Assembly: GCA_035710125.1 (NCBI GenBank)
Contig: DASTDY010000070.1
Coordinates: forward strand, 4,198-28,197
Direction: 5' to 3'
From: Candidatus Saccharimonadales bacterium
GTDB taxonomy: Bacteria > Patescibacteriota > Saccharimonadia > Saccharimonadales > EFPC-124
DNA length: 24,000 nt
The stretch's first letter is position 1. Every line of letters begins with the position of its first letter. The notes under the pieces are model-generated. The model made no database searches and had not been told where the DNA came from. It saw nothing but the letters and a program-made list of their open reading frames with translations. Position numbers and translations under genes: made by a program. This document shows, piece by piece, positions 181-23,792 of the stretch.

Positions 181-209
181 TTGACACATTAAAGTTTATA
201 TTATAATAT
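181..209 (+). promoter_or_regulatory. sigma70-like promoter of island gene A
   Basis: TTGACA (181-186), 17-nt AT-rich spacer, TAATAT (204-209). An overlapping TATAAT lies at 202-207. It sits in an AT-rich patch directly abutting the GC-rich leader. Confidence 0.5.
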
Positions 210-246
210 TTACGCTACATTGGCCCTCTGACCCTGGAGACAGCAC

Positions 247-714
247 ATGACCATCGCCGGCAACAGCAGCCTGACGCATGTCAGCGAACTGGCACAGGAC
301 ACCAACACCGACCCGGCCGCCATAGAGGCGGCATGTATCGAGCTCCTGCCCGAATGGGAGGACATGGTGCCCACCGACCAGAGCAGGCTGTTCTTGCTGC
401 TGGCCGAGGCCATCGGCACCGACCCGAACCGTCTGGACGCAGCCGCCGAGCTGGCCAACGAGGCCTGGCAACTGGCCCGAGAAGACGACAGCATCGTGCT
501 GGCCGTCGAAGCACGATGCGCCTACGCACGCTTCACCGCACACGAGTGCACCACGTTCGAGGAGTACATGGGAGGCACCATGAAGCTCGGGTTCCACCTC
601 CTGATCAAGTTCGCCCAGTTGCCGAGCGACGAGATCGACGCGATCACCGAGGCTCTGAAAAAGGTCTACGCCCACGGGGTGTCGCTGATCGCCAAGGGCG
701 TACTCACCGACTAG
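247..714 (+). CDS. hypothetical acidic helical protein, high-GC island A (155 aa)
   Basis: ATG at 247 preceded by GGAGA (236-240). The amino-acid composition looks natural, unlike the Arg/Pro/Gly-rich alternative frames. About 65% G+C. Distant paralog of island B over a ~47-aa stretch (..QLAREDDSIVLAVEA.. vs ..QIAYSKGNVVLAVKA..). Confidence 0.7.
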   Translation: MTIAGNSSLTHVSELAQDTNTDPAAIEAACIELLPEWEDMVPTDQSRLFLLLAEAIGTDPNRLDAAAELANEAWQLAREDDSIVLAVEARCAYARFTAHECTTFEEYMGGTMKLGFHLLIKFAQLPSDEIDAITEALKKVYAHGVSLIAKGVLTD

Positions 715-725
715 CAGGCCGATGC

Positions 726-767
726 GCCCCAAGCATGTTACCAAGATTACATGCTTGGGGCGTTTTC
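726..767 (+). terminator. intrinsic terminator of island A
   Basis: Perfect 13-bp stem, GCCCCAAGCATGT (726-738) with ACATGCTTGGGGC (749-761), 10-nt loop, followed by GTTTTCG. Confidence 0.75.
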
Positions 768-783
768 GATTGTGTATAAAACA

Positions 784-812
784 TTGACAAATAAACTTAT
801 TTATTATAGGAT
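784..812 (+). promoter_or_regulatory. sigma70-like promoter of island gene B
   Basis: TTGACA (784-789), 17-nt spacer, TAGGAT (807-812). A TATAAT also lies at 812-817. Confidence 0.45.
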
Positions 813-845
813 ATAATAATCAATCCTCTTGCCCTAGGGGTGCAC

Positions 846-1232
846 ATGGCCGAGTTCAACGAAGACGACCACATCAAGACCGTCGCAGACGCCATTGAGG
901 TGGCACTGATCGACGCAGAAGACCTGGCCGAAGCAGGCAACTACAACGAGGCGATCACCCTCGCCGACCGTGCCGCCCAGATCGCCTACAGCAAGGGCAA
1001 CGTCGTGCTGGCCGTCAAGGCAGCCAGCGACGCCCACCGCTACAACGCCCGCAGCCTGACGCTGGCGGAATTCTGGAAAAGCTTCCACGAGTTCTACAGC
1101 ATCGTCAGGAACGAGTGGCTGCAAGGCCGCAGCGACGCCGAGGCCAAGCAGGCCTACGTGTTGCTTCAAGAGCTCGAAACGTTTGGCGACGACCTCGCCA
1201 AACAGCGTGCCCTCGAAGCGCCTGAGGACTGA
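846..1232 (+). CDS. hypothetical acidic helical protein, high-GC island B (128 aa)
   Basis: ATG at 846 with AGGGG 5 nt upstream; the ORF track's GTG at 840 is less likely. Paralogous to island A. Confidence 0.7.
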   Translation: MAEFNEDDHIKTVADAIEVALIDAEDLAEAGNYNEAITLADRAAQIAYSKGNVVLAVKAASDAHRYNARSLTLAEFWKSFHEFYSIVRNEWLQGRSDAEAKQAYVLLQELETFGDDLAKQRALEAPED

Positions 1233-1235
1233 TAC

Positions 1236-1290
1236 CGTCCCCGGACTACCTGCCATCAACCGGCAGGAACGTCCGGGGCGCTTCAGTTTT
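1236..1290 (+). terminator. intrinsic terminator of island B
   Basis: Interrupted long stem: CCCCGGAC (1239-1246) with GTCCGGGG (1271-1278), inner CCTGCC (1249-1254) with GGCAGG (1262-1267), then CTTCAGTTTT. Confidence 0.65.
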
Positions 1291-1348: not shown

Positions 1349-4300
1349 ATGACGGAGTTCACCCAAGCGTATGCGGCATTAAATGCTGCTCAAAAACAGG
1401 CGGTCGACACAATTGACGGACCAGTTTTGGTTGTAGCCGGCCCTGGCACCGGCAAAACGCAGCTTCTTGGCATGCGCGCGGCAAATATTGTGCGTAAAAC
1501 AGATGTGCTGCCGGGCAATATTTTATGCCTTACATTTACCGAATCTGCCGCCGCAGCCATGCGCCAGCGCCTTATTAGCCTCATGGGGCCAGAAGGCAAC
1601 AAGGTGGCGGTGCATACATTCCACAGTTTTGGGTCAGAAATTATTAGTAATAACGCCGAATATTTTTATAACGGCGCCAAATTTGCACCCGCAGACGACC
1701 TTGCTAGTTACGAAATCCTGCGCGAGATTTTTGAATCGCTGCCGCACAGTTCACCACTCGCCAAAACCATGAACGGCGAATTCACCTCGTTAAAAGATGC
1801 GCGCGCTGCAATCTCGCACCTAAAACGCGCCGGCTTGTTGCCAGCCGAGCTTGGCGTAGTACTCGACCATAACAAACTATTTTGTGACGCAGCAGAACCA
1901 ATCCTGGGCGAACTGTTTGCAAACCGGCTTTCTAAAAAAGATTTGCCATCGTTTGGGACGGCTGCCGAGCAATTAGCTGCGTTCAAAGCCAAACCCATGC
2001 CACTTGGCTTTATAAAACCACTGCACCAACTTTGCACGGTAGAATTTAGCCGCGCAATCCAAGACGCAATCCAAACGGGCAAAACTACTCCTCTTACCGC
2101 GTGGCGCAACCGTTGGCTCGAAAAGAACCATCTTGGCGTTTTTGTTTTTAAAGACCGCAAGCAGAGCAAAAAACTGGGCGCACTCATTAAGGTGTACCAA
2201 AAATACCTAGAATCGCTGCAAGAACACATGCTGTTCGACTTTGACGACATGGTGAGCTCAGTAGCCCACACGCTAGAAACCGTGGCCGAACTGCGCCTAA
2301 ACCTACAAGAACAGTACCAATATATTATGGTAGACGAATTCCAAGACACCAACGGCGCCCAATCGCGCTTGCTGGCTGCGCTTACCGAAAACCCGCTCAA
2401 CGAAAACCGCCCCAACGTACTTGCGGTAGGCGATGACGACCAAGCTATTTATGCATTCCAGGGCGCAGAACTCAGTAACATACTAGAGTTTGCTGCCCGC
2501 TATAACGACACTAAAGTTATTACACTTACCGATAACTACCGCTCGACCGCCCAAGTACTCTCACATGCCCGCCGCGTGATAACACTGGGCGAAAACCGGC
2601 TCGAAAACTCATTGCAAGACATCCGCAAAGACTTAATCGCCCACAACACAGCCGCGCCGTCGGGCACAGAACTTCACGTTGCTAAAACCCCCGACGCAGA
2701 GCTCCACTGGATCGCTGCCCAGGTTAAAAAGCGCGTGCAAAACGGGATGCCCGCCCAGGATATTGCCATTTTAGCCCGTACGCACCGGCAACTTATACAG
2801 CTTGTGCCTCATTTGCACGCCGCAGGCATCGCAGTCAATTACGAACGTCGCAACAACGTACTAGAAAGCCAACCAATCCAAGAGCTCATTACGCTTGCAG
2901 AAGTGACAGTGGCAATATCTGAACAACGCTATGACATTGCCGAAAGCCTGCTGCCCGAACTTTTAAGCTATAAGTTTTGGGGCATAACAACTGCCGACCT
3001 CTGGAAACTATCGGTCCGTGCCTACAAAGAGCGCCGCATGTGGCTCGAACTTATGGTAGATTCTAAAGGCAGACTGCGCCAGATTGCCGAATTTTTAATT
3101 GTTGCCTCGCACAACGCTACACATGACCCACTCGAAGAAATACTGGACTTCCTGCTAGGAAGCAACGAACAGCAAGTGCCAGCCGAAGATACCGATTCTG
3201 ACCTGCCATTCTTGCACAACACCACAGACGACGAAGAAACGTTTATTTCGCCCTTCCGCGCCTACTTTTTTAACCAAGGGCAACTGCAAAAAAACCCGAC
3301 CGCCTATTTAACCCTGCTTAGCAACCTGCGTGCAATCCGTCGCGGTGCCGCCGCATACCGTCCCAATAGCATACTAAGCTTGCGCAGTTTTATAGATTTT
3401 ATTGAACTATGCGAACGTACCAATACCCCTGTTGTAGACACCGGAACCACACACGAATCTGCACACGGCGTCCACCTAATGACAGCCCACAAAGCAAAAG
3501 GGCTAGAATTTAACACCGTGTTCGTTGTAAGCTGCCAAGACGATGTATGGGGGCGCAAAACCCGCCATAAATACACCAGCTTGAGCTTTCCGCACAACCT
3601 GCCCATAGAGCCTGCCGGCCAAAAGTACGACGATGCCCTGCGTTTGTTTTTTGTAGCTATGACGCGGGCCAAACAACACTTAATTTTGTCGGCGCACCTT
3701 GCTGACGCCGATGGCAAAGAACGAATTTTAGCAGAATTTTTGCAAGATGACAGCCTTTCGCCCATACCCGCAACCGAAGACGACGCGCCAAAACTAGAAG
3801 AACGCAGCCCGGGGTGGGAACTCCGGCACCTCACCCTGCCACAAGTAGACCAAAAGGTATTGTTACAGCCCATCCTAGACTCATACCAATTAAGCGCAAC
3901 CCACCTAAATAACTTCTTAGATATCACCCGCGGCGGCCCGCAGGCATTTTTACTACAGAACCTACTGCGTTTTCCGCAGGCAATCACCTCTGGCCAAGCA
4001 TTTGGCCAAGCCGTGCACGCAGTGCTGGCCCGCGCCCATACTCATTTAACGGCCACTGGCGAACGCCGCCCCATAGAAGATATCCTGCACGACTACGAAC
4101 TGCAACTGCAACAAAACCTGCTCAGCGAAAAAGAATTTAGCTATTTGCTAGAGAAGGGCAGCGAAGTCCTACATACCTTTTTAGCCGCCCGTTACGATAG
4201 CTTTTTGCCGGAACAGAAGGCAGAGCGCAGTTTCAGCACCCAGGGCGTGCGGCTCGGCGACGTCCGGCTAACCGGCGCAATCGACCTACTAGACATAGAC

Positions 4301-4851: not shown

Positions 4852-5356
4852 ATGCACTCGAGGATACGGAGGACGCTGCTAGCTGCAGCGTTGGTGATAT
4901 TCATCTCCGCAAGTCTGGCAGCAACTCCCGCTCAGGCAGCAGATGGCTGTTATGGCGACTACTGTTCCGGACGCGATCCGTCAAACTACCGGTGTAGGCA
5001 ATGTCCCATGTGCTAACGACGCCAAGTCCGTGATGCACGCAGATTTGGAGGTATATCGACCCGACTACCCGGGCGCCGTCACCGGCTCCTGGGTGAAGGT
5101 CGGCGACCTTGACCTGCGATGGTCGCCTCGGTGTCAAACCAACTGGGCCAGGGCAAGCATGTTTGCAGACACCACAATGATCGCGGCGAGCGTCACCCAA
5201 AGCACTGGCTACACGATGCGCCGTCAGACCAATGGCTGGTGGGGCGGTTCATCATCAGGTGTCTACTGGACGAACATGATTTACTCGCCAGTGGCCGCCT
5301 GCAGGGCCTGGGTTGAGGGTGGCTCGTTCCGCACAAGTTCGACCGGCTGGAGATAG
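4852..5356 (+). pseudogene. frameshifted gene for a secreted DUF2690-like protein (high-GC island C)
   Basis: ATG at 4852 with AAAGGAAG upstream encodes a signal peptide (MHSRIRRTLLAAALVIFISASLAATPAQA) followed by DGCYGDYCSGRDPSNYRC, then stops at 5014. The rest (CANDAKSV...LDLRWSPRCQTNWAR...) continues in the +1 frame (ORF 4943..5356). The two Cys codons that fit the same motif position (4993 and 5009) are 16 nt apart. Confidence 0.6.
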
Positions 5357-5369
5357 TCCTGCTATGGCA

Positions 5370-5399
5370 CCCCGTTGCACCCAAAGTTGTGCAACGGGG
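5370..5399 (+). terminator. GC-rich hairpin after island C (no U-tract)
   Basis: 11-bp stem, CCCCGTTGCAC (5370-5380) with GTGCAACGGGG (5389-5399), 8-nt loop. No T-run follows. Confidence 0.5.
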
Positions 5400-5440
5400 G
5401 TATAAGCCTTACTATAAAATAAGTGAGCAAAGGAATGTGA

Positions 5441-5644
5441 ATGTACCCAATACAACATGCAATAGCATATCTGGTTTTATTATTAATGAGCGCCGTCTTA
5501 GTTATTGTTTTACCTAAGGTGATTGATTTGTTGCCTCTTACGAAAGAATCCAAAAATCAAGCAATTGGAATCGCTATAGGAGGCGTAATTATATTTGCGG
5601 TGATATCTTATATCCTACAGCCGTTTGCAATGCTTCTTGGTTAA
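5441..5644 (+). CDS. small AT-rich two-TM membrane protein (67 aa), hypothetical
   Basis: ATG at 5441 with AAAGGA 8 nt upstream. Two hydrophobic spans (AIAYLVLLLMSAVLVIVL and IGIAIGGVIIFAVISYIL). No recognisable family. Confidence 0.4.
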   Translation: MYPIQHAIAYLVLLLMSAVLVIVLPKVIDLLPLTKESKNQAIGIAIGGVIIFAVISYILQPFAMLLG

Positions 5645-12112: not shown

Positions 12113-12354
12113 GGCTAAGGATCGTAACGCGCCACGACTGGTGGGACGATACCTTTTAAGAACCAGTCTTTGCGTTTGGCTCACCCACCGGTTTTGATTC
12201 GGGCGATCCCCGTTACGATCGACAGTGAATTTTCTTTAATACGCTTCCACACATAAATATGATACCAAACTAAATTAACAGTTGTTGGCATGCATGCAGC
12301 ATTTTGGGCAAGATGGCCACATATAATGCCAGAAGTGACGTTCTTTAGAAACAC

Positions 12355-12383
12355 TTGACTTCTTATACGAAATATTATATGAT
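12355..12383 (+). promoter_or_regulatory. sigma70-like promoter of cassette D
   Basis: TTGACT (12355-12360), 17-nt spacer ending AAATATTA, TATGAT (12378-12383). The -35 and the spacer 3' half are identical to the cassette E promoter. Confidence 0.55.
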
Positions 12384-12415
12384 TTAATTTAGTCTGCAAG
12401 GTAAAAACCAGCAAG

Positions 12416-12430
12416 ACAAGCACCCTGCGT
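12416..12430 (+). promoter_or_regulatory. 5'-leader box of cassette D (ACAAGCACCCTGC shared with E)
   Basis: GCACCCTGCGT (12420-12430) is the exact reverse complement of ACGCAGGGTGC (12921-12931), which lies just 5' of hammerhead 1. The 13-nt ACAAGCACCCTGC recurs at 13098-13110. Confidence 0.6.
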
Positions 12431-12460
12431 TACTACCGCCTAGGAAAAGGACTTTCCGAG

Positions 12461-12883
12461 ATGAACTTCTTCGCCAAGATCGCCCAGCGTTTCACCAGCA
12501 AGAAGACCGCGGCCACCGTGTTGCACATCTTCTGCACGATCCGTTCGATGCAGACGAAGGTTGGCGGCATGCTGCACTACGCGCTGGAGAGCACCACCCC
12601 CGCCTTGTTCTGGCCGACCAGCCACACCAACCCCGCAATGGGGTTCACGGTGTGGTCCACGCCGGACCTGCACGGGTTCACCATGGACGTCGCCATCTCT
12701 TGCCCCAACCGATTGGTGCGCGCCGCGACGGAGAGAGTCCTTCGGCAGAGCCCCTACCTGGCTCCTGGCTCGCTGCAGAGCAACGGCACCACCATCTGGT
12801 GCACGTTCTCCAGCGGCTACGCCGAGCTGGCGGATCGCTACTACACCGTGCGATCCAACATGCTGGCGTACCGCCCCTCCTAG
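12461..12883 (+). CDS. hypothetical protein, high-GC cassette D (140 aa)
   Basis: ATG at 12461 with AAAGGA upstream. This is the only frame with a natural composition; the overlapping and antisense ORFs are Arg/Pro/Gly-rich. No family recognised. Confidence 0.65.
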   Translation: MNFFAKIAQRFTSKKTAATVLHIFCTIRSMQTKVGGMLHYALESTTPALFWPTSHTNPAMGFTVWSTPDLHGFTMDVAISCPNRLVRAATERVLRQSPYLAPGSLQSNGTTIWCTFSSGYAELADRYYTVRSNMLAYRPS

Positions 12884-12920
12884 TCGATTCTTGGCTTCCG
12901 CACTGCGCGGAGCCGGCGGG

Positions 12921-12933
12921 ACGCAGGGTGCGT
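12921..12933 (+). promoter_or_regulatory. GGG-loop hairpin occluding the hammerhead 1 stem III strand
   Basis: ACGCA-GGG-TGCGT. Its 3' arm overlaps the stem III 5' strand (12930-12937). The 14-nt ACGCAGGGTGCGTT is conserved in cassette E. Confidence 0.5.
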
Positions 12934-12988
12934 TTCGTCTATATCTTATAGATATACTGATGAGCTCTGATAGAGCGAAACGAAACGC
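12930..12988 (+). ncRNA. type III hammerhead ribozyme 1 (GUC cleavage after C12939)
   Basis: Stem III: GCGTTTCG (12930-12937) with CGAAACGC (12981-12988), plus A15.1:U16.1. GTC triplet at 12937-12939. Stem I: TATATCT (12940-12946), loop TAT, AGATATA (12950-12956). Core CTGATGA (12957-12963). Stem II: GCTCT, loop GAT, AGAGC (12964-12976) with the G10.1:C11.1 pair. GAAA (12977-12980). Confidence 0.85.
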
Positions 12989-13040: not shown

Positions 13041-13069
13041 TTGACTTTTTTATATAAATATTATACAAT
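13041..13069 (+). promoter_or_regulatory. sigma70-like promoter of cassette E
   Basis: TTGACT (13041-13046), 17-nt spacer ending AAATATTA, TACAAT (13064-13069). Confidence 0.55.
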
Positions 13070-13097
13070 AGTACGGCATAGGAAATCCTTCCAAAGC

Positions 13098-13110
13098 ACA
13101 AGCACCCTGC
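13098..13110 (+). promoter_or_regulatory. 5'-leader box of cassette E (ACAAGCACCCTGC)
   Basis: GCACCCTGC (13102-13110) is the reverse complement of GCAGGGTGC (13644-13652) in front of hammerhead 2. Confidence 0.6.
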
Positions 13111-13129
13111 ACGAACTTGAGAGGTCTAA

Positions 13130-13600
13130 ATGGGATTCATCAGCAACTTCCGCGAGTGGCTCATCACCGACCACTTCCGCAAGGAGTTGGGCGTGGTAGG
13201 TATGGCTCTGGCGGCCATTCGCGGCCAGCAGCTGCGCTACCAGATGCGCTACGAGCTTGCGATTGCCAGCAACAAACCCGTTTACGAACCCAACGGCCCG
13301 AACTTCACCAGCACCGTCGACGTCGTCACGCCCCTGGGCACAGTCAACCTGACCGCGAACGCCGTCGGCAACGACCTGTCCAAGCTCTACCTGAGCGTGG
13401 GCTGCGGCAAGCGCCTGGCTGTGGAGCTGATCGAGGCAGCGCTCGCGGCGTCGGGCGAGGAGTTCACCCCCTTCGGAGTGGACGCGTTGGAGTTCCAGCG
13501 GGCCGAGGACTACAACGACCTCCTCTACCTGTTCACCTGCGAGATCAGCGGTGTCCCCGCACACCTGGAGGAGAGCTACCACAAGGCCTTCCCAGGCTGA
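13130..13600 (+). CDS. hypothetical protein, high-GC cassette E (156 aa)
   Basis: ATG at 13130 with GAGAGG (13119-13124) 5 nt upstream. Natural composition. No family recognised. Confidence 0.65.
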   Translation: MGFISNFREWLITDHFRKELGVVGMALAAIRGQQLRYQMRYELAIASNKPVYEPNGPNFTSTVDVVTPLGTVNLTANAVGNDLSKLYLSVGCGKRLAVELIEAALAASGEEFTPFGVDALEFQRAEDYNDLLYLFTCEISGVPAHLEESYHKAFPG

Positions 13601-13638
13601 CCTCCAACACATTCGACAGTGTCTTCGGGCACAGTCGG

Positions 13639-13657
13639 GCGAACGCAGGGTGCGTTC
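13639..13657 (+). promoter_or_regulatory. GGG-loop hairpin occluding the hammerhead 2 stem III strand
   Basis: Perfect 8-bp stem, CGAACGCA (13639-13646), loop GGG, TGCGTTCG (13650-13657). It sequesters all of GTTCG (13653-13657), which the ribozyme stem III needs. Confidence 0.55.
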
Positions 13658-13706
13658 GTCTATATCTATTAAGGTATACTGATGAGCCCTGTTAGGGCGA
13701 AACGAA
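13653..13706 (+). ncRNA. type III hammerhead ribozyme 2 (GUC cleavage after C13659)
   Basis: Stem III: GTTCG (13653-13657) with CGAAC (13702-13706), plus A:U. GTC triplet at 13657-13659. Stem I: TATATC, loop TATTAA, GGTATA (13660-13677). CTGATGA (13678-13684). Stem II: GCCCT, loop GTT, AGGGC (13685-13697). GAAA (13698-13701). Stem II carries a compensatory T:A to C:G change relative to ribozyme 1. Confidence 0.8.
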
Positions 13707-13720
13707 CAAACGAAACATCT

Positions 13721-13778
13721 AAATAGGGTGGTTGTCTTTTTTTCGACTGTCTTAGAAGAAAAAAGACACCACCCTATT
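13721..13778 (+). repeat. conserved-apex long hairpin, copy 1
   Basis: AATAG (13721-13725) pairs with CTATT (13774-13778). The middle stem GGTGGTTGTC pairs with GACACCACC (one bulged T). The apex TTTTTCGACTGTCTTAGAAGAAAAA is identical to copy 2. A possible outer extension is CATCTA (13715-13720) with TAGATG (13784-13789). Confidence 0.65.
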
Positions 13779-13808
13779 TTGCTTAGATGTTTACTCAAAT
13801 AATCCTTA

Positions 13809-13836
13809 TTGACTTTCACTCACGATAGTATAATAT
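13809..13836 (+). promoter_or_regulatory. sigma70-like promoter of cassette F
   Basis: TTGACT (13809-13814). The -10 is ambiguous within TAGTATAATATATAAT (for example TAATAT at 13831-13836 with a 16-nt spacer). Confidence 0.4.
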
Positions 13837-13909
13837 ATAATAACCCCTTAGCGATCATTTCCGCTCTGGGCTTTACGTATCCCCGTTTCTGAATCAGGAG
13901 GCACTGCGA

Positions 13910-14326
13910 ATGATCGCAGCTTGCAGAACACAGATCACGGCCCTCGGCGAGAAAGTTTTGGCCTTCATCGGCGCGCCCGACTGCACCACCAACGACACCG
14001 CGTGGTTCGGCACCTTCGGCGTCGAGCTCGGGCTGCTGCCCGAAGCCAAAGACGACAGCGTGCGCATCACCTGCGCGGTGACGTTCGCGGAGGCCGACGA
14101 CGACCTCATGGACGCCGTCACGACCTCGCTGCACGACCTCGGCATGGTCAAGACCGACGAGGACCTCGCGGCGCGGCACCTCAAGTTCGAGATGCCGACC
14201 GAGATCTGGCGCAAGTACGCGGCCGACTGCGGTCAGATCGACCTGACCTCGCCGGCTACGATCACCCCGATCGGCGCGCCCACGACGTCGCACGGCCTCG
14301 ACCTGGCCCTCGCGACCACGGCCTGA
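13910..14326 (+). CDS. hypothetical acidic protein, high-GC cassette F (138 aa)
   Basis: ATG at 13910 with AGGAGG 8 nt upstream. Natural composition, unlike the overlapping Arg-rich frame 13921..14424. Confidence 0.65.
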   Translation: MIAACRTQITALGEKVLAFIGAPDCTTNDTAWFGTFGVELGLLPEAKDDSVRITCAVTFAEADDDLMDAVTTSLHDLGMVKTDEDLAARHLKFEMPTEIWRKYAADCGQIDLTSPATITPIGAPTTSHGLDLALATTA

Positions 14327-14344
14327 CCTGCTTCACCCGCCGGC

Positions 14345-14386
14345 GGCCCCACGCCCTGTCAACTCCTCCCGCGAGGGCGTGCGGCC
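14345..14386 (+). terminator. GC-rich hairpin after cassette F (no U-tract)
   Basis: CACGCCCT (14350-14357) pairs with AGGGCGTG (14374-14381), extended by GGCC with GGCC. A second small hairpin, GGGGG-TACG-CCCCC, lies at 14405-14418. Confidence 0.45.
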
Positions 14387-14446
14387 GCCACCCATGCAAG
14401 AAACGGGGGTACGCCCCCACCTAGACTTATATGCTATATTATTTAT

Positions 14447-14722
14447 ATGGATAGCGCTTCACACAAAACATCACCAGTCGTTGTATATAGCAGCCCCACC
14501 TGTGGTTTTTGCCACATGGCTATGGATTACCTTTCTGAAAAGGGCGTAGATTTTATAGAAAAAGACATCAGCACCGACCAAGAAGCCTTACGCTATGTAC
14601 TAGAGAAGGTCGGCCAGGCAGTCACTCCAATTATCACTATTGGCGACCAAAATATTGTTGGCTTTGACCGTGCAAAAATAGACGAAGCATTAAAACAGCT
14701 CAACCCACACGCGGCCGCCTAA
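14447..14722 (+). CDS. glutaredoxin-like thioredoxin-fold protein
   Basis: 91 aa. VVVYSSPTCGFCHMAMDYL (a CxxC active site after beta1), with TPIITIGDQNIVGFD typical of the Grx/NrdH fold. Confidence 0.85.
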   Translation: MDSASHKTSPVVVYSSPTCGFCHMAMDYLSEKGVDFIEKDISTDQEALRYVLEKVGQAVTPIITIGDQNIVGFDRAKIDEALKQLNPHAAA

Positions 14723-15292
14723 ATGGCATTTGAAGATTTTAAAACCAAGCCCAGTGTCGTTATTGTATACACTGGCGAAAGCAAGGGAAAAACCAGCGCC
14801 AGCATTGGCCTTATGTGCCGGGCTTTAGGGCGCGGCTGGCGGGTGGCCTATATCCAATTTATAAAAGACTGGGAAGTAGGGGAGCATACGTTTATCCGCA
14901 CTATCGAGCCCCTCTTTGAAGACCGTCTCACCTTTTACAAGGGGGGGAAGGGGTTTTTTAATGCCGGCAGTATCAGCGCAAAAGATGTGACGCCCGCCCA
15001 GCATCGCGAGGCGGCTAAAGCCACCTTTGACTTCGCCCAAAAATGTATAACGTCCGGAAACTACGACCTTGTGGTTTGCGACGAAATCAACAATGCCGTG
15101 GCCGACGGTCTTTTAACGGCCAAAAACCTAGCCTCATTACTACAAACCCGCGCCCCACACACCAGCGTGTGCGTGACCGGCCGGAATTTCCCAGAAGAGC
15201 TGCTGCCGCTGGCAGATATTGCAACCAACATGGCCAAGATAAAACACCATTTCGACGACAAATTTCTTGCCAACAAAGGCATAGACTACTAA
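14723..15292 (+). CDS. cobO: cob(I)yrinic acid a,c-diamide adenosyltransferase family protein (CobO/BtuR-type)
   Basis: P-loop-like YTGESKGKTSASIGLMCRALGRGWRVAYIQFIK, with VCDEINNAV and VTGRNFPEEL. The start abuts the grx stop. Confidence 0.8.
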   Translation: MAFEDFKTKPSVVIVYTGESKGKTSASIGLMCRALGRGWRVAYIQFIKDWEVGEHTFIRTIEPLFEDRLTFYKGGKGFFNAGSISAKDVTPAQHREAAKATFDFAQKCITSGNYDLVVCDEINNAVADGLLTAKNLASLLQTRAPHTSVCVTGRNFPEELLPLADIATNMAKIKHHFDDKFLANKGIDY

Positions 15293-15335
15293 AAAACCGC
15301 CAAGTTGCAGCGGCTGATGTTTTGCGAAAGTATGT

Positions 15336-15379
15336 GCCTGCGGCACCCCAACCCGAAAATCGGGTGGAGTGCCGCAGGC
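15336..15379 (-). terminator. long GC-rich hairpin downstream of island G
   Basis: GCCTGCGGCAC (15336-15346) pairs with GTGCCGCAGGC (15369-15379). Inner ACCCG pairs with CGGGT. It lies between the convergent cobO and G; there is no clear U-tract. Confidence 0.5.
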
Positions 15380-15385
15380 GGCCGT

Positions 15386-15649
15386 TCAGACGACGTAAGC
15401 GCCAGTGCGGGCGTCGCTGATCGAGGACTCAAAGTGCCCCCAGTCGCGCAGCTTCTGGAGCACCTGGCCCACGGTGTAGCTGCTGACGTTCTCCGGCGCG
15501 AAGAACACCACCGTCACAGGACCACTCCCGCTGTGCGCCTTGATGCCGGCGATGCCCAGCAACGAACCATGAAAGCCACCCTTGTCCAGGCAGACGGTCA
15601 TCTGCTCGTGGCCGGTGCCGGCTTCGTAGCCCCACGAAACGCTTCCCAT
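15386..15649 (-). CDS. hypothetical protein, high-GC island G (87 aa)
   Basis: ATG at 15649 with AGGGG 5 nt upstream. The ORF-track TTG at 15682 is less likely. Confidence 0.55.
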   Translation of the reverse strand: MGSVSWGYEAGTGHEQMTVCLDKGGFHGSLLGIAGIKAHSGSGPVTVVFFAPENVSSYTVGQVLQKLRDWGHFESSISDARTGAYVV

Positions 15650-15687
15650 TTGTACCCCTGTCGCTCGTGCTGACTTTGACAAATGTT

Positions 15688-15717
15688 ATGCTATCACACC
15701 ATTTACAATTTTGTAAA
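15688..15717 (-). promoter_or_regulatory. candidate promoter of island G
   Basis: Read on the minus strand: TTTACA (15712-15717), 18-nt spacer, TGaTAGCAT extended -10 (hexamer at 15688-15693). Confidence 0.35.
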
Positions 15718-15729
15718 GTGTGCTACCAT
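15702..15729 (+). promoter_or_regulatory. candidate promoter of island H
   Basis: TTTACA (15702-15707), 16-nt spacer, TGcTACCAT extended -10 (15721-15729). Its -35 and the G -35 are the two arms of TTTACA-N4-TGTAAA. Confidence 0.4.
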
Positions 15730-15784
15730 ATACATCTACCCTGTGTAGGTAGTTTGTTGTCCGTTGTTTTGGAGAGGAACGCAA

Positions 15785-16213
15785 ATGTGTGAAGCGCGGC
15801 GCATCATGGTCACGCCCACCGGCATCGTGCAGGACACGCCCGCACCCCAACCGCAAGCGCAGGGGACGGACGCGCATCCGCCTACCGACCAGCAGGTGTT
15901 GCTGGCCGCCGACAAGCTGGCCGGCATCGAGCTGCTGGTGTCCAACTGCGTGGGCGGCGTCGATTCGACCACTGGAGCCAAGGTGTTACAACCGCTCGAG
16001 GGTGCCGACATCGGCCTGACCGTGCTGGTGGCAGCGAACGCCGAGGCGCCCGACGGCATCGACGTGGAGTTCTTCCGCATCGAGCCGTTGGCAGCCGACC
16101 CCCGCCTGCAGTACTTGGCGTACGACCCGTACGACGAGGTGTGGTTCTTGACCTGCGGCGGCTCGCTGTGCACCAGCACGTCCGAGAGCGAGCTGGTGGG
16201 CGCACCCGCTTAA
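15785..16213 (+). CDS. hypothetical protein, high-GC island H (142 aa)
   Basis: ATG at 15785 with GGAGAGG (15771-15777). A Pro/Gln-rich N-terminal segment precedes a structured-looking C-terminal part. Confidence 0.65.
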   Translation: MCEARRIMVTPTGIVQDTPAPQPQAQGTDAHPPTDQQVLLAADKLAGIELLVSNCVGGVDSTTGAKVLQPLEGADIGLTVLVAANAEAPDGIDVEFFRIEPLAADPRLQYLAYDPYDEVWFLTCGGSLCTSTSESELVGAPA

Positions 16214-16243
16214 TCGGGCCAGACGCCGATTCAAGACATGCAA

Positions 16244-16290
16244 CAAAAGCCCTGCTGGCACACCATGCGCGTACCAGCAGGGCTTTTTGC
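16244..16290 (+). terminator. intrinsic terminator of island H
   Basis: 11-bp stem, AGCCCTGCTGG (16248-16258) with CCAGCAGGGCT (16274-16284). Flanked by AAAA upstream and TTTTTGCTTTTT downstream. Confidence 0.75.
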
Positions 16291-16406: not shown

Positions 16407-16473
16407 AATAGCGGCAGGTATGTTCCATTTTTCGACTGTCTTAGAAGAAAAATGGAACATACCTGCCGCTATT
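16407..16473 (+). repeat. conserved-apex long hairpin, copy 2
   Basis: Perfect 26-bp stem (16407-16432 with 16448-16473) and a 15-nt loop, CGACTGTCTTAGAAG. The base AATAG/CTATT and the apex TTTTT-loop-AAAAA are identical to copy 1; the middle 16 bp are unrelated but fully complementary. Confidence 0.7.
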
Positions 16474-18436: not shown

Positions 18437-18465
18437 TTGAATTCATAAGGGTTTTATGTTATAAT
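18437..18465 (+). promoter_or_regulatory. sigma70-like promoter of island I
   Basis: TTGAAT (18437-18442), 17-nt spacer, extended -10 TGtTATAAT (18457-18465). Confidence 0.6.
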
Positions 18466-18512
18466 TTGCAAAGTCGTAAGAAGAACCCACACAATCTGCG
18501 CAAGGAGAAACC

Positions 18513-19232
18513 GTGGACACCGAGCAATTGCTGATTGATGTCCGCAACACCGTGCTGGCGCAGCTCAGGCCTCTGAGCGCATTCGGCGTGTACGCCATCG
18601 GCTTCAACCCGAGCCGCGTGCAGGACCGTGAAAGCGGAAACGGGAAGTTCGGCATGAACTTCGTAATCTACGCCGGATCGGAGCTGTACACCCACCTGAA
18701 CAAGCGCGGCAACCACTGCGTGTACCCCGAACGCCTGCTGTTGATCTACCGCACATTGGCGGAGGTGCTCAAGCCCTTCACCGACAGCGGCCGACTGCAC
18801 TTCATGGCGAACGAGGCCATGCTGATGGCAACTCTCCCCGAGTTCATGTGGGAGTCGGCCGGCGTAGTACTGGACGACGACCTGGTTCGGGTGCCCCAGA
18901 GCAACATCTGGGACATCTGGGACCGCGCGCTGGCCGAAGGCTGGCTGGCGGACCGCACCAACTCAGAGCTCGACCCCTGGGGCCGCGTGCTCAACAACGC
19001 ACCCCTGTTCACCGCCGAGAACCCTGACCACAACGCGTGGGCAAGCTTCTCGGTCCTGCCCTACGACTCGAAAGAGCCGCGGACAGAAGAGGCGATGGGC
19101 ATGGCTGCTCTGACCCACATCGGTTGGAACTTCCTCGGAGAGACCGAACCTCACGAGCTCCAAGAGATCGCCGAGAAGCTGCTCAGCGACTCGGTGTTCC
19201 TCAGGCAGCACAACTGCTGGGTCTTTCTCTGA
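18513..19232 (+). CDS. hypothetical protein, high-GC island I (239 aa)
   Basis: GTG at 18513 with AAGGAG (18502-18507) 5 nt upstream. Trp/Asp-rich with a natural composition. No family recognised. Confidence 0.7.
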   Translation: MDTEQLLIDVRNTVLAQLRPLSAFGVYAIGFNPSRVQDRESGNGKFGMNFVIYAGSELYTHLNKRGNHCVYPERLLLIYRTLAEVLKPFTDSGRLHFMANEAMLMATLPEFMWESAGVVLDDDLVRVPQSNIWDIWDRALAEGWLADRTNSELDPWGRVLNNAPLFTAENPDHNAWASFSVLPYDSKEPRTEEAMGMAALTHIGWNFLGETEPHELQEIAEKLLSDSVFLRQHNCWVFL

Positions 19233-19255
19233 GCACTGCCAGGGTCTTCTGCGAC

Positions 19256-19287
19256 TGCCTGCTGCGCCCCAACCGGCGCAGCAGGCA
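19256..19287 (+). terminator. GC-rich hairpin 1 after island I
   Basis: Perfect 13-bp stem, TGCCTGCTGCGCC (19256-19268) with GGCGCAGCAGGCA (19275-19287), 6-nt loop. Confidence 0.6.
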
Positions 19288-19310
19288 AGAAGACTCCCCC
19301 TAACCAATCT

Positions 19311-19336
19311 CACGCAACGATGCGTGGGTTTTTTAT
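19311..19336 (+). terminator. intrinsic terminator 2 after island I
   Basis: CACGCA-ACGA-TGCGTG (19311-19326) followed by GGTTTTTTATTTT. Confidence 0.7.
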
Positions 19337-20476: not shown

Positions 20477-21490
20477 CTACAAAATCTCTTGGTAAGCTTT
20501 TACCAAAAGCGCACCGCCAGCTTGGCTATCGAACCGTGCAGCAACCTCTTGGGCGCCCTTAACGGCATCTGCATAAAAATTCTTGTCTTTGCCCAGACGT
20601 TCAATAATAGAGGTAAAAGAGGTATCTGTGCCCCTGATGACATCCGTTCTAAATGTATCGTTATATTCAGATAAATTGCGCACCACAATTGGCAGGCCAA
20701 CTCCGGCGGCTTCTAGAACCGCCATGGGGTGGTTCTCTTGGCTCGAAGGCAAAAAGAACACATCGACTGCCTGCAAATATTGCCGCACGTTGTCGTGCAC
20801 AATAACGCCAGTAACGGTAACGTTGGGCGGCCGTTTATCTACTTGGCGCTGCATTTCATTATAGTCGGCTCCCAGATGCTTAAAGGGGATGCCGCCAATC
20901 CAAATAAACTGCACATTTGGCAATGACCTGGCGACTTTGCAGAATTGGTCAAAACGCTTGCGGGGTTGGATCTGTCCACAGCTGGCCACAATTGTGGCAT
21001 CTGGGGACAGTTTTAACCGTTTGCGCGCAGCGGCTTTATCTGCTGGAGTAGTCTTATATAAGCTCATGTTAACAGTGTTATATAACACTTTGGTCGGCCG
21101 TTTTACCTTTAATTGCTGGCGTAAGGTGATATCAACCTGTTTAGAAACCGATAATAACAGGTCGGCGCGCCCATAAAAAAAGTGCATGTACCATCTGGCA
21201 ATGCCGTAAAAATACTTGGCGCCAATTATTGACCCAACGAGCGAATCTGGCACCACGTGCACAGACACCACTTTTTTGCCTGACCCAAATAAAAGATGTA
21301 GCAAACCGTAAGGGCCAAATGTTTGGATATGTGTAATATCGGCACCGCGACGGAACTTATTTACGATTACATCTGTATCTGGTTGCGCACGCAAGGCGTG
21401 TGTCATTTCTTCGAATGCGGTATGTACGCCATGACCCTGTACCGTAAAAACGCTTTCAGAGATCATGTTGATTTTAAGTTTTCGACTCAT
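20477..21490 (-). CDS. GT4-family (GT-B) glycosyltransferase
   Basis: 337 aa. C-terminal FFLPSSQENHPMAVLEAAGVGLPIVV motif. TACAAT lies 10 nt upstream of the ATG at 21490. Confidence 0.8.
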   Translation of the reverse strand: MSRKLKINMISESVFTVQGHGVHTAFEEMTHALRAQPDTDVIVNKFRRGADITHIQTFGPYGLLHLLFGSGKKVVSVHVVPDSLVGSIIGAKYFYGIARWYMHFFYGRADLLLSVSKQVDITLRQQLKVKRPTKVLYNTVNMSLYKTTPADKAAARKRLKLSPDATIVASCGQIQPRKRFDQFCKVARSLPNVQFIWIGGIPFKHLGADYNEMQRQVDKRPPNVTVTGVIVHDNVRQYLQAVDVFFLPSSQENHPMAVLEAAGVGLPIVVRNLSEYNDTFRTDVIRGTDTSFTSIIERLGKDKNFYADAVKGAQEVAARFDSQAGGALLVKAYQEIL

Positions 21491-21580
21491 AACTAGAGGT
21501 ATTGTAGCAGATAATCACGAAACAACCGCCTACCCCCAAGGATTTCTCCAAAAAGAGCAGGCGGTCGTTCGACCAAAAAA

Positions 21581-22297
21581 CTAGCCACGTGGCAGGCAAC
21601 CTGCAGCTCCTTGCCACCACTCGCTGAGCGGTCGCTGGAGCAGGGGCCAGCCATTGCTGATATGCACGCAAATCGTGTCTGGACGGGGCATCGTGTTGTC
21701 GAGCACCACGCACACCACCCAACCCACAATGCCGCCGAGCGCCACCAGACGCATCACCATATGCCAGGCTCGCCACGGGGCTTCAACCAAGGCAGGCAAC
21801 ACCAGGGCGAACAGCGCGTAGCCGTACGTAGGCAGGATCAGCGTGTGATACACCTTGGTGGGGCTAAAAAACGCCCCCCAGGTCATGATGTTCGACTGTC
21901 CCTGCATTGAGTAGGTGACAATGGCCTCAGGGATTGTCAGGCCCAACAGGCACGCCACACCAAAGCCGACTGCCAACCAACGGAACCAGCGACGCTGATA
22001 CCACTGGTTCTCGCCGTGGAGCTCTTTGGCCAGCATGCTGGCCGCAAACCAGGTGAATCCCAAAAGCAGATCACCAGGCAAGAGTCCCAGGTACTGTTGG
22101 CTCAGGTTGACCGATCGACCCTCGACAAGCAACGCCAGAGCCAACAGGCCAACCGGAGTCGCCAACCAACCTATGTAGGGCTGGATTTTCGAGGAGTCAA
22201 AGGTCCAACGCAAGCCAGGGACAATCCGCAGTTGAATCCTCGGAAAGTCAAAAGCCCAACGAAGGCCAGGGACAATCCGCAGCTGCTGCGCCAACAT
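21581..22297 (-). CDS. polytopic membrane protein, high-GC island J (238 aa), paralog of K
   Basis: ATG at 22297 with AAGAGG upstream. It aligns with K across the E(N/G)R..S.QY.GL..GD, WYQ..W...GxGVA and SPT..(V/Y)HT blocks. The N-terminus carries a 17-aa tandem duplication. Confidence 0.65.
   Translation of the reverse strand: MLAQQLRIVPGLRWAFDFPRIQLRIVPGLRWTFDSSKIQPYIGWLATPVGLLALALLVEGRSVNLSQQYLGLLPGDLLLGFTWFAASMLAKELHGENQWYQRRWFRWLAVGFGVACLLGLTIPEAIVTYSMQGQSNIMTWGAFFSPTKVYHTLILPTYGYALFALVLPALVEAPWRAWHMVMRLVALGGIVGWVVCVVLDNTMPRPDTICVHISNGWPLLQRPLSEWWQGAAGCLPRG
22196..22282 (-). repeat. 51-bp tandem repeat (about 1.7 copies) inside the 5' end of J
   Basis: GTCAAAGGTCCAACGCAAGCCAGGGACAATCCGCAG (22196-22231) and GTCAAAAGCCCAACGAAGGCCAGGGACAATCCGCAG (22247-22282). 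The 51-nt period encodes LRIVPGLRW(A/T)FD..(R/K)IQ twice. Confidence 0.8.
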
Positions 22298-22353
22298 CTG
22301 GCACCTCTTTCGGATCGAACGAACACTTCTTCCGTAACGGAATAGCAAAAAAG

Positions 22354-22362
22354 ATTATAACA
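22354..22362 (-). promoter_or_regulatory. extended -10 promoter element of island J
   Basis: Minus-strand TGtTATAAT, 56 nt upstream of the ATG. No good -35. Confidence 0.4.
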
Positions 22363-22384
22363 TAATTGTCTTCAAAAAGCGAAT

Positions 22385-22426
22385 AGCCGCCCGCTCTCCC
22401 ACTGGTGTAGTGGGGAGCGGACGGCT
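22385..22426 (-). terminator. intrinsic terminator of island K
   Basis: Imperfect ~14-bp GC-rich stem (AGCCGCCCGCTCTCC with GGGGAGCGGACGGCT on the plus strand). On the minus strand it is followed by ATTCGCTTTTT. Confidence 0.65.
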
Positions 22427-22442
22427 TATCCGACCTTGAGAG

Positions 22443-23708
22443 TTACTTCTTGACCCAGGGCGGGTCAACCCAGCCAGCCGGCTTGGAGTTCTCGTTGCCC
22501 TGGGTGGGCGCCGAGGTCTCCTCGCCGGTCATCCACGGCGGCAGCGGCAGGCTCGACTGCGGCTGCACGATGTGAGGCTGGGTGCCGGTGTCGACCGGCT
22601 GCCTGTCGGCGATCCACGGGGGGACAGCCAACGGGCGGTTCTGCGGTGCGACGGACGGCTGGTCGGGTCCACGCCCGAAAGTCGGACGCTGGACGCCGCC
22701 ATCGAACGGAAGCGGTTTCACGAGCACCTCGCCGTCCTGCTGACGGACACGCACGACCTGAGTCGCATCGGAGTCGCGCTTGCTGTCGTCCACCACGCAC
22801 TCCGGCTTGGCTTTCACGAACGTCTGCTTCTTCGGCACCCAACGGGCGTGGCTGAAGCTGTTGTAGTACTTGTACCACTTCCAGACGAACAGCTTGTCAC
22901 GCTTGCCCGCAACCAGCAGACCCAGGAACACCTGAAGCTTGGGGAGCCACCCGTTGTAGGGGTGTACCAGGCTCAGGTCGACCTTGCGGCCACCGTTGCC
23001 TGCCTTGTAGTCCTTGCGTTCCTTGTTGTCCTTGATCACGGAGTTGACGAACCAGACGAACAGGCCGACTGCCATGACGCAGATCAGCTGAGCCGCCAGC
23101 ACCTTCTTGCCGACGCTGTAGTCGCCCAGAATGCCGTGCGTCAGTTCCACCGTCGTTGCCGACACGATGACCACCGTGAGGTAGGTCACCAGGAGGATCA
23201 GTGCGGTGTGCACCAGCGAGGTAGGGCTGAGCTGCTGACCGATGGTGTAGACACCCTCGTCGTTCAGCGACTTCCGCTTGGCCCACCTCATGGTGTGGTT
23301 CTTCGGACGACCCCACGCCCACGTGCGGGCCAGGGTGAAGAAGATCTCCGTTCCCTTGAGCAGCAACATCAACGCGACGCCGAGGCCCCAGCCGATGTTG
23401 TGCAGCCACGCCTCCTGGTACCACATGCCAGTTGTGTCCGGCAGGAGGATGAGGGTGGCGATGGTTCCCGCGGTGAGGGCGATGCCCACGCCGATGTCAC
23501 CGTACTTCAGTCCCTTGTACTGCGCGCTGTAGGGGATCCAGCGGTTCTCCAGGAGGAGTCCCGTGGTCCACATGAGCACGAAGGTGTAGATGAAGCCGGC
23601 GAACAGGGTGGTGAACGGCGTTGTCCACGTTGGCCAGATCTCGTAGAAGAATCTCGCCCACGGGTACAGGTTCAGCTTGTCGGGAAACGACGTGACGTCG
23701 ATGTTCAT
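22443..23708 (-). CDS. polytopic membrane protein with Pro-rich C-terminal tail, high-GC island K (421 aa)
   Basis: ATG at 23708 (MNIDVTSFPDK) with GAGAGG upstream. About 6 hydrophobic spans. The C-terminal ~130 aa are Pro/Gln-rich, with three PPW motifs (VPPWIAD, LPPWMTG, DPPWVKK). Confidence 0.65.
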   Translation of the reverse strand: MNIDVTSFPDKLNLYPWARFFYEIWPTWTTPFTTLFAGFIYTFVLMWTTGLLLENRWIPYSAQYKGLKYGDIGVGIALTAGTIATLILLPDTTGMWYQEAWLHNIGWGLGVALMLLLKGTEIFFTLARTWAWGRPKNHTMRWAKRKSLNDEGVYTIGQQLSPTSLVHTALILLVTYLTVVIVSATTVELTHGILGDYSVGKKVLAAQLICVMAVGLFVWFVNSVIKDNKERKDYKAGNGGRKVDLSLVHPYNGWLPKLQVFLGLLVAGKRDKLFVWKWYKYYNSFSHARWVPKKQTFVKAKPECVVDDSKRDSDATQVVRVRQQDGEVLVKPLPFDGGVQRPTFGRGPDQPSVAPQNRPLAVPPWIADRQPVDTGTQPHIVQPQSSLPLPPWMTGEETSAPTQGNENSKPAGWVDPPWVKK

Positions 23709-23763
23709 GTGCACCTCTCGGGAAAAATGGTCGGATGGTGCGCCAGGCGGCGACACCAACATT

Positions 23764-23792
23764 ATTTTACTATATTACATAACTATTGTCAA
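23764..23792 (-). promoter_or_regulatory. sigma70-like promoter of island K
   Basis: Minus-strand TTGACA (23787-23792), 17-nt spacer, TAAAAT (23764-23769). A 55-nt GC-rich leader follows. Confidence 0.6.

Follow-up and report, generated by a model that had tools for sequence, protein, structure and literature searches.

Eleven GC-rich genes, here called islands A to K, are interspersed with housekeeping genes in a 24,000-nucleotide stretch of contig DASTDY010000070.1 (the window, meaning throughout the whole stretch analysed), which comes from a Candidatus Saccharimonadales metagenome-assembled genome (MAG) of the soil Saccharibacteria (Patescibacteria, or Candidate Phyla Radiation, CPR). The islands, ten of them intact and one (C) frameshifted, are probably resident, lineage-restricted, vertically inherited and fast-evolving genes, likely to be strongly expressed, whose synonymous GC content is actively maintained. 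The main candidate for the maintaining force is selection on strongly expressed, stable mRNAs, with GC-biased gene conversion as the alternative. A typical unit would consist of an AT-rich, near-consensus sigma-70 promoter, a leader with a Shine-Dalgarno sequence, an open reading frame (ORF) with GC content at third codon positions (GC3) around 0.86, and a structured 3' end. A first-pass annotation, made from the sequence alone, had read the islands as foreign coding units captured repeatedly behind resident promoters. Syntenic GC3-rich orthologs, synonymous divergence (dS) that for D, E and I is about that of the backbone, lineage-restricted families and codon quirks shared with the backbone leave that reading mostly unsupported; its statement that the pattern is not ordinary island-type transfer is one we share.

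The backbone consists of genes for a UvrD-like helicase, the F1Fo ATP synthase operon, a glutaredoxin-like protein (grx), CobA, a thermonuclease (nuc), two GT4 glycosyltransferases (GT4a, GT4b) and a glycoside-hydrolase-like protein (GH). In a profile computed in 200-nt windows, the eleven island patches have a GC content of 0.59-0.73, compared with about 0.46-0.56 in the backbone and 0.34-0.43 in the promoter patches. GC3 is bimodal, at 0.68-0.92 per gene in the islands (around 0.86) and 0.43-0.60 in the backbone (about 0.53-0.55), and at fourfold degenerate sites GC is 0.83 versus 0.56. Because GC1 and GC2 are about equal in islands and backbone, the GC excess is synonymous and not a consequence of amino-acid composition. 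The contrast among islands, backbone and promoter patches noticed at first pass is thus borne out by the profile, by GC3 and by fourfold-site GC. The further statement that composition switches at the -10 element, with a GC-rich leader, does not hold: GC rises in steps, from 0.285 in the promoter to 0.53 in the leader, which is the backbone level, and to about 0.63 in the ORF. A leader GC of 0.53 next to a GC3 of 0.86 points to a force specific to coding regions and speaks against a purely regional cause, be it donor DNA or GC-biased gene conversion.

Island codons reverse several backbone preferences (TTC over TTT, GAG over GAA, AAG over AAA, also GTC), and C-ending and G-ending codons are raised together (C3 0.48, G3 0.37). 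They keep backbone quirks: AGC is the main serine codon, arginine codons rank CGC>CGT>CGG, and GGG is low. The arginine, serine and glycine ranks so retained are unlike typical actinobacterial usage. The TA dinucleotide occurs at 0.45 of expectation in the islands versus 0.91 in the backbone, and predicted ORF folding is stronger, at -0.40 to -0.50 kcal/mol per nt in islands versus -0.21 to -0.38 in the backbone.

Islands G, I and the J/K pair have syntenic orthologs, in the same slots and with GC3 of 0.73-0.92, in three sister-genus MAGs (L002, L003 and L004). The backbone proteins of these MAGs are 52-88% identical to those of the window, most of them 68-88%, compared with only about 22-47% for the island orthologs: 47% for J, 24-30% for I (GC3 0.78-0.86), 22-26% for the K-like proteins and 34% for G, found in L002 and L003 with GC3 up to 0.92. 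With proteins down to 24-47% identity and GC3 unchanged, silent sites must have turned over many times, from which we infer an equilibrium that is maintained.

Islands B, C, D, E, G and I are present in closer strains, three of which (L005, L140 and L141) allow rates to be compared for B, D, E and I. Between these strains and the window, backbone genes show a nonsynonymous divergence (dN) of 0.004-0.021, a dS of 0.26-0.46 and a dN/dS of 0.02-0.07. The corresponding values are 0.18, 0.31 and 0.57 for D, 0.07, 0.13 and 0.55 for E, and 0.135, 0.30 and 0.45 for I. Island dN is therefore roughly 5-100 times backbone dN, while the dS of D, E and I (0.13-0.31) is about equal to that of their neighbours (0.26-0.34). 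Similar dS combined with high dN argues for vertical descent rather than independent capture. B is faster: it is 43% identical to its L005 ortholog, with a dN of 0.49, a dS of 0.73 (neighbours 0.30-0.46) and a dN/dS of 0.67. GC3 is the same in the two strains compared, at 0.86-0.89. As a separate observation, the region holding C and a following 67-aa ORF (4921-5640) has a dS of only 0.11-0.12 relative to L005, below the 0.30-0.46 of the flanking backbone, and together with the value for B this patchiness of dS suggests recombination.

The island families appear confined to the lineage. None of the ten intact islands has a credible match in Pfam, NCBIfam, PHROG or PADLOC. Island I, which is NCBI protein HET9412322.1 (locus tag VFO38_05815) of a Candidatus Saccharimonadales MAG, has nine family matches in a set of 1.84 billion representative proteins; just one of the nine is assigned to a named organism, Ca. 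Saccharimonas, and all are 214-245 aa long apart from one repetitive protein. For E, the sole homolog apart from itself is 84% identical, and both families, I and E, occur only in Saccharimonadales-type contexts. A tblastn search of GenBank phages gave no match to any of the 11 island proteins and a scan of IMG/VR no relatives of A, E or K, the three islands scanned, results that count against a phage origin. In a search of 72,556 plasmids C was the sole island with a match.

Expression signals were sought as matches of at least 9/12 to TTGACA-N16-18-TATAAT located 30-110 nt upstream of a start. The best promoter-like matches in the window sit upstream of islands, and nine islands have a near-consensus sigma-70 site, with matches of 11/12 for K, 10/12 for A, B, D, E and I, and 9/12 for F, G and H. 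The half from 12 to 24 kb contains 16 promoter-like sites versus 7.7 +/- 2.8 expected. J has an extended -10, TGTTATAAT, as its promoter-like element, and C has no convincing promoter in the consensus scan, so the near-consensus promoters reported at first pass for many of the units are borne out by the scan in nine islands. Each of the 11 island ORFs is preceded, at 6-9 nt from its start, by a Shine-Dalgarno sequence within a leader of 26-71 nt, and the 3' ends carry hairpins with T-runs or, after D and E, a hammerhead motif. Strong ribosome-binding sites and a 3' hairpin or ribozyme had both been described correctly, as had the autonomy of the units, each of which has by consensus scans its own promoter and 3' end, C excepted. 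The first genes of backbone units present a contrast: helicase, grx, GT4b and atpB lack a Shine-Dalgarno sequence, and a -10-like hexamer stands only 6-12 nt ahead of their ATG (1336-1351, 14435-14449 and, on the minus strand, 21490-21510), which suggests leaderless or near-leaderless mRNAs.

Hammerhead ribozyme motifs follow D and E. Unit D (12355..12986, plus strand) has a promoter TTGACT-17-TATGAT at 12355-12383, a 5' box at 12420-12440, the ORF at 12461-12883 (140 aa, pI 9.7, GC3 0.91), a 3' box and hairpin at 12915-12939 and, at 12932-12986, a type III hammerhead motif predicted to cleave after C12939. Unit E (13041..13791, plus) is built alike, with promoter TTGACT-17-TACAAT at 13041-13069, 5' box at 13102-13110, ORF at 13130-13600 (156 aa, GC3 0.89), 3' box and hairpin at 13637-13661, type III motif at 13653-13708 and a long hairpin at 13714-13791. 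Both motifs have an intact catalytic core, GUC / CUGAUGAG / CGAAAC, and 16 columns are invariant over 14 sequences. The three helices (stems I and II closed, III open) are paired in 90.2% of cells, with 15/19 pairs changed on both sides, and the covariation score over the 14 sequences is 0.77 versus 0.27 for shuffles and 0.06-0.15 for slid controls. Two points count against the motifs: their scores with Rfam model RF00008, 42.2 bits (E 3e-6) after D and 38.0 bits (E 4.8e-5) after E, lie below the gathering score of 48.5 bits, and the 14 sequences had been pre-selected for stems, which weakens the covariation result. Between strains, the hammerhead, E promoter and E leader are about 97-100% identical, compared with 82% for the D ORF.

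Motifs of this type occur in other genomes and contigs as well. L002 has a copy (42.0 bits) 25 nt before grx, in a slot without D, E and F; the short GC3-rich ORF preceding it was considered as an E relative and set aside, having no similarity to E. In a more distant relative (L026/L123, helicase 44% identical), a hammerhead follows a GC-richer 112-aa ORF in the slot that island B occupies in the window, with 19 nt separating the motif from the helicase start. A metagenome pattern search returned 120 stretches, only about 15 of which passed the stem filter; most of the 120 were chance matches in coding DNA, for example in a recurrent human-gut gene. At one locus (L106, 1776-1900) an ORF that begins MELQSPVTDVKGVGEELAKRLAVLGVKTVGELID starts 17 nt beyond the hammerhead and has a -10-like TATACT 7 nt before its ATG; judged by eye, this ORF looks RecG-like. 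The viral contig L010 (IMG/VR UViG_3300008261_000142) carries, in reverse-complement 1888-3911, three type III hammerhead motifs in the same orientation between small ORFs.

Hammerheads flanking single genes are known from prophages and from archaeal viruses and haloviruses, one of them, HHphage, lying 13 nt upstream of a viral helicase gene; the proposed role of the known examples is to divide long transcripts into mRNAs of one gene each (Perreault et al. 2011, PMC3088659). The type III motifs of the window resemble them in sitting between the small genes D, E and F, those of L002, L026 and L106 resemble HHphage in lying 17-27 nt upstream of the next gene (grx, helicase and the RecG-like ORF), and the arrangement in L010 is like the prophage arrangements of the same study. 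The window motifs differ in their setting on a Saccharibacteria chromosome, in an upstream hairpin that competes for stem III and in a complementary box in the 5' leader. A narrow literature search found no paper linking hammerheads to Saccharibacteria or Patescibacteria, and no description of a 5'-leader box complementary to sequence preceding a ribozyme.

In D and E, one strand of stem III is also the 3' arm of the upstream hairpin, and in local folds the hairpin wins. The 5'-leader box (GCACCCUGC...) is complementary to the top of that hairpin; the exact 9-mer GCACCCTGC occurs in the 24 kb at the four expected sites only. Predicted folds of the full-length mRNAs pair the leader with the 3' box, with 10.8 expected base pairs for D and 9.2 for E and duplex energies of -25.7 and -20.7 kcal/mol, and free stem III. 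Leader pairing would thus release stem III from the local hairpin, and hammerhead cleavage would then leave an mRNA with both ends paired. Unit F (13809..14418, plus strand; promoter 13809-13836, ORF 13910-14326, 138 aa, pI 4.3, GC3 0.92) has a 15-bp complementarity between leader and 3' UTR without a ribozyme: the 5' box CGTATCCCCGTTTCT at 13876-13890 is the complement of the 3' box AGAAACGGGGGTACG at 14399-14413, which follows a GC hairpin (14342-14389) and overlaps a hairpin GGGGG-TACG-CCCCC in the 20-nt stretch 14399-14418.

The same layout of promoter, leader box, Shine-Dalgarno sequence, GC3-richer ORF, 3' box and hammerhead recurs in independent metagenome loci. In L118, whose ORF is weakly E-like (E 0.026), the boxes GCACUCUGC and GCAGAGUGC show a compensatory change relative to the window (CCC/GGG to CUC/GAG). 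L106 and L127 have perfect boxes of 13 nt and 12 nt, unrelated in sequence, which are the top-ranked duplexes of their own loci, and full-length folds of L118, L106 and L127 give 17-20 expected base pairs between the ends. A leader match in L082 and L088 was dropped, as it lies upstream of the promoter. In duplex-energy rankings the leader sites of D, E and L118 do not come first, a point against the pairing, explained by a GC-rich background that yields many strong duplexes.

Type I toxin mRNAs such as hok/sok and AapA1/IsoA1 fold back from 5' to 3' end, couple 3' processing to refolding and are very stable. The full-length mRNAs of D, E, F, L118, L106 and L127 share with them, by prediction only, the long-distance pairing of the 5' region with the 3' end; in D and E, 3' processing would likewise be tied to refolding and the expected transcript would be very stable. 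The products differ: hok-like units encode a small hydrophobic toxin, whereas those here are 136-286 aa long and mostly soluble, no small membrane toxins, and D, E and F encode 138-156 aa without a TM-like segment. Processing here would be by ribozyme and not by exonuclease trimming, and no antisense RNA is known. The arrangement of hairpin, leader box and hammerhead in D and E, as modelled, seems new.

Several observations weigh against resident, vertically inherited genes with maintained GC. The GC-normalised dinucleotide difference (delta*) between islands and backbone is 0.227, compared with 0.043 +/- 0.014 within the backbone; this signature looks foreign, yet it persists through vertical descent. 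ATP synthase genes, usually well expressed, are not GC3-rich in the window, so simple expression-level codon bias is insufficient as an explanation. Folding z-scores relative to synonymous shuffles average about -1.8 in islands and -0.95 in the backbone with overlapping ranges, and mRNA structure in excess of composition is not clearly enriched. The atpB|grx gap of L002 lacks D, E and F, an instance of gene turnover. The synteny check proposed at first pass finds the slots of G, I and J/K occupied in sister genomes and that of D, E and F empty in L002. C, finally, matches a Rhodococcus plasmid protein annotated as 'DUF2690 domain-containing protein' (36% identity, E 2e-7).

These observations bear most directly on repeated capture from a high-GC donor, an actinobacterial host or its mobile elements, by natural competence, with the GC content that of the donor and with ORFs that landed behind, or acquired, resident AT-rich promoters. 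The high-GC partner proposed at first pass is plausible for a Saccharimonadales backbone: cultivated Saccharibacteria are epibionts of Actinobacteria and are naturally competent (PMC10633639). The broadly high-GC codon usage, the delta* value, the DUF2690-like C and the L002 slot without D, E and F all fit capture. We nevertheless judge it unlikely. Sister genera hold syntenic orthologs with GC3 unchanged, the dS of D, E and I equals that of the backbone between strains (B being higher than its neighbours), GC1, GC2 and leader GC are at the backbone level, and the arginine, serine and glycine codon ranks are those of the backbone. Homologs of I and E were found only inside the lineage, no island had a phage match, and the actinobacterial homologs predicted at first pass appeared for C alone, with none for the other islands in plasmids. 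Islands other than C may have an ancient foreign origin. Classical genomic islands and recent transfers likewise show deviant GC, codon usage and dinucleotides, genes without assigned function, and some presence/absence variation, as in D, E and F. The units here differ in being single genes scattered over many gaps, GC-rich, not ameliorated in composition and with orthologs that co-diverge with the backbone. The window contains no tRNA, no direct repeats were seen flanking islands, and no integrase or transposase domain was found among the window proteins scanned, in keeping with the first-pass observation that mobility genes are missing.

Phage 'morons', a term of Hendrix and colleagues, are reportedly autonomous units of promoter, gene and terminator with deviant composition, inserted between prophage genes. 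The islands resemble them as single genes with their own promoter and terminator (by consensus scans only, C excepted), deviant in composition and placed between genes without interrupting any. They could accordingly be moron-like cassettes of a Saccharibacteria phage or mobile element, with conserved flanks serving as recombination handles and ORFs swapped between strains. D and E, whose ORFs are unrelated, have promoter-like sequence, leader box, 3' box and hammerhead in common; L010 holds three such ribozymes between small ORFs; and hammerheads flanking single genes are typical of prophages (PMC3088659). Island dS is also uneven, from 0.13 to 0.73, and the 0.11 of the C region against 0.30-0.46 in its flanks suggests recombination. 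We regard this origin as quite unlikely. The neighbours (helicase, atp operon, grx, cobA, nuclease, glycosyltransferases) are chromosomal housekeeping genes in conserved synteny rather than prophage genes, inheritance is vertical across genera, the deviation is toward GC and is maintained, and the boxes fall within the predicted transcript, where RNA folds show them paired. The same negative results for integrase, transposase, tRNA and direct repeats apply, and PHROG, IMG/VR (three islands) and GenBank phages (all) gave no relatives. The marks of integron gene cassettes, namely attC, an adjacent integron integrase and promoterless cassettes, are not those of the units, which lack an integrase, have a promoter each and carry their inverted boxes inside the transcript.

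A GC3 excess that merely accompanies GC-biased gene conversion at hot spots of recombination in variable genes, without selection on RNA or translation, would account for the joint rise of G-ending and C-ending codons and for the uneven dS of neighbouring genes, which points to recombination. It is nonetheless very unlikely, as the leaders (0.53) and promoters (0.285) of the same units are not GC-enriched, and raising GC3 from about 0.55 to about 0.86 would take effects far larger than those generally attributed to conversion in bacteria.

Chimeric assembly of a 50% GC genome with a 65% GC genome deserves virtually no credence: the source is a MAG and Logan assemblies break close to some islands (for example the 905-bp contig L142), but the junctions recur in independent assemblies and samples (L001, L005, L140, L141) and the corresponding slots of three sister MAGs have this pattern too. 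L001, an independent Logan contig assembled from different reads, reproduces the arrangement grx-cobA-G, cobA|G junction included, at 99.86% identity, the related-strain assemblies L005 and L140 span B-helicase-C-atpC and atpB-D-E, and the sister MAGs have GC-rich patches too, on a background of 0.51-0.56 GC. The mosaic of islands and backbone is not an assembly chimera, and the independent assemblies contradict the artefactual junctions that the first-pass annotation had named as a possible refutation. As to the source genome, E. coli or a synthetic construct was ruled out by megablast, which gave no match to E. coli genomes, and one of the two GT4 glycosyltransferases has relatives in three Candidatus Saccharimonadales/Saccharimonas soil MAGs.

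Unit C (4852..5400, plus strand, GC3 0.68, 3' hairpin 5368-5400) stands apart. All the reading frames listed at first pass exist, except that 4852-5356 is no single ORF: a frameshift near 4990 (about 4985-4995) divides it into frames starting at 4852 and 4943 and splits the signal peptide and the motif CYGDYCSGRDP from the rest of the protein. The ortholog in L005 (P0003, 165 aa) is intact and 95% identical, and the frameshift is either a real pseudogene or a consensus error of the MAG. The repaired protein scores 19.6 bits (E 1.1e-3) with PF10901 (DUF2690), below the cut-off of 23 bits, and 16/20 C homologs carry PF10901. C is like the secreted DUF2690 proteins in its signal peptide, its CYGDYCSG.DP motif and a conserved LRWSPRCQTNWAR block, and unlike them in being sub-cut-off and frameshifted and in having close relatives in compact genomes of about 50% GC. 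A structure predicted for the family (pLDDT 86.6) is a beta-sandwich without a significant match in the PDB. C is followed at 5441-5644 by a conserved, AT-rich 67-aa membrane ORF with two TM-like segments. Genes of the C family each have such an AT-rich ORF of about 70 aa (GC3 0.31-0.45) behind them, a pair conserved across distant loci (4694-4897 in L005, 5580-5795 in L006, 5605-5817 in L008).

The remaining units lie on the plus strand in the case of A, B, H and I and on the minus strand in the case of G, J and K. Unit A (181..766) comprises a promoter TTGACA-17-TAATAT at 181-209, an ORF at 247-714 (155 aa, pI 4.4, GC3 0.87) and an intrinsic terminator at 727-766. Unit B (784..1290; promoter 784-812, ORF 846-1232, 128 aa, pI 4.5, GC3 0.83) ends in nested hairpins plus a T-run at 1239-1290; the helicase gene, apparently leaderless (-10 at 1336-1341, ATG at 1349), comes directly after it. 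G and H are divergent. G (15291..15717) has its promoter at 15717-15688, ORF at 15649-15386 (87 aa, GC3 0.84), a hairpin at 15381-15336 and a terminator at 15315-15291; H (15702..16288) has its promoter at 15702-15729, ORF at 15785-16213 (142 aa, pI 4.1, GC3 0.87) and a terminator at 16246-16288. Their promoter-like sites overlap at 15688-15729 around a common palindromic core, TTTACAAAATTGTAAA. Unit I (18437..19334) has promoter TTGAAT-17-TATAAT at 18437-18465, an ORF with a GTG start at 18513-19232 (239 aa, GC3 0.85), a hairpin at 19257-19286 and a terminator at 19309-19334. J (21527..22362), with the extended -10 at 22362-22354, ORF at 22297-21581 and 3' hairpins at 21574-21527, encodes 238 aa with four TM-like segments (GC3 0.72). 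K (22374..23792), with promoter TTGACA-17-TAAAAT at 23792-23764, ORF at 23708-22443 and a terminator at 22426-22374, encodes 421 aa with five TM-like segments and a Pro-rich C-terminus (GC3 0.88). The products include six acidic and soluble proteins, two membrane proteins and one secreted protein. Of two paralog pairs proposed at first pass, J/K is real (E 2.5e-7) and A/B marginal (E 0.013-0.025). Occupation of every available gap had been overstated: two junctions hold no unit, nuc/GT4a, where the listed ORFs are 0 nt apart, and GH/GT4b, where they are about 33 nt apart.

Three further observations concern the units and their surroundings. The 5' end of J holds a 51-nt tandem duplication (22182-22283, 78% identity) that encodes a repeated motif, RIVPGLRW.FD. 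Two long hairpins, one after the E hammerhead (13714-13791) and one before the nuclease gene (16407-16473), differ in stem (one about 30 bp, the other a perfect 27 bp) and share a 25-nt top, TTTTTCGACTGTCTTAGAAGAAAAA (100% identity), which was not found in the other loci compared or in IMG/VR. At 12159-12291 on the minus strand lies the remnant of a DUF6766 gene. An intact counterpart in L140 (232 aa, AT-rich, GC3 0.42) sits between atpB and D; the remnant matches its residues 1-26 at 85% identity and residues 203-232 at 53%, and by this comparison the window genome has lost about 175 codons inside the gene by deletion.

Orphan and accessory genes of bacteria are as a rule AT-richer than core genes, and deviant composition is usually read as the fading trace of a transfer. 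The islands reverse this pattern: GC3 stays near 0.86 in different strains and genera, although the proteins change roughly 5-100 times faster than those of the backbone. They offer a clean natural setting in which to ask whether high synonymous GC is upheld by selection on mRNA or translation, or by biased conversion. The combination of hammerhead and 5'-3' box is a candidate for regulated self-cleavage, mRNA end protection or insulation in bacteria. A role of the island proteins in host interaction or defence is a guess. Speculatively, and we think with little probability, the islands form a dedicated host-facing gene compartment of this Saccharimonadales clade, perhaps of Saccharibacteria more widely, in which fast-evolving orphans combine host-like (actinobacterial) synonymous GC with durable mRNAs. 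Durability would come from strong promoters, UA depletion, paired 5' and 3' ends and ribozyme-defined 3' termini, and it might serve message survival in a host-free stage; matching of nucleotide pools scavenged from a GC-rich host, or function inside the host, are other possible reasons for such a compartment. If it exists, the leader-dependent hammerhead would act as an insulator or as a natural sensor for whether a transcript is intact. On the reading we prefer, of resident genes under maintained GC, the islands are a set of unannotated and, by prediction, probably highly expressed genes in an epibiotic CPR lineage for which few host-interaction factors have been described.

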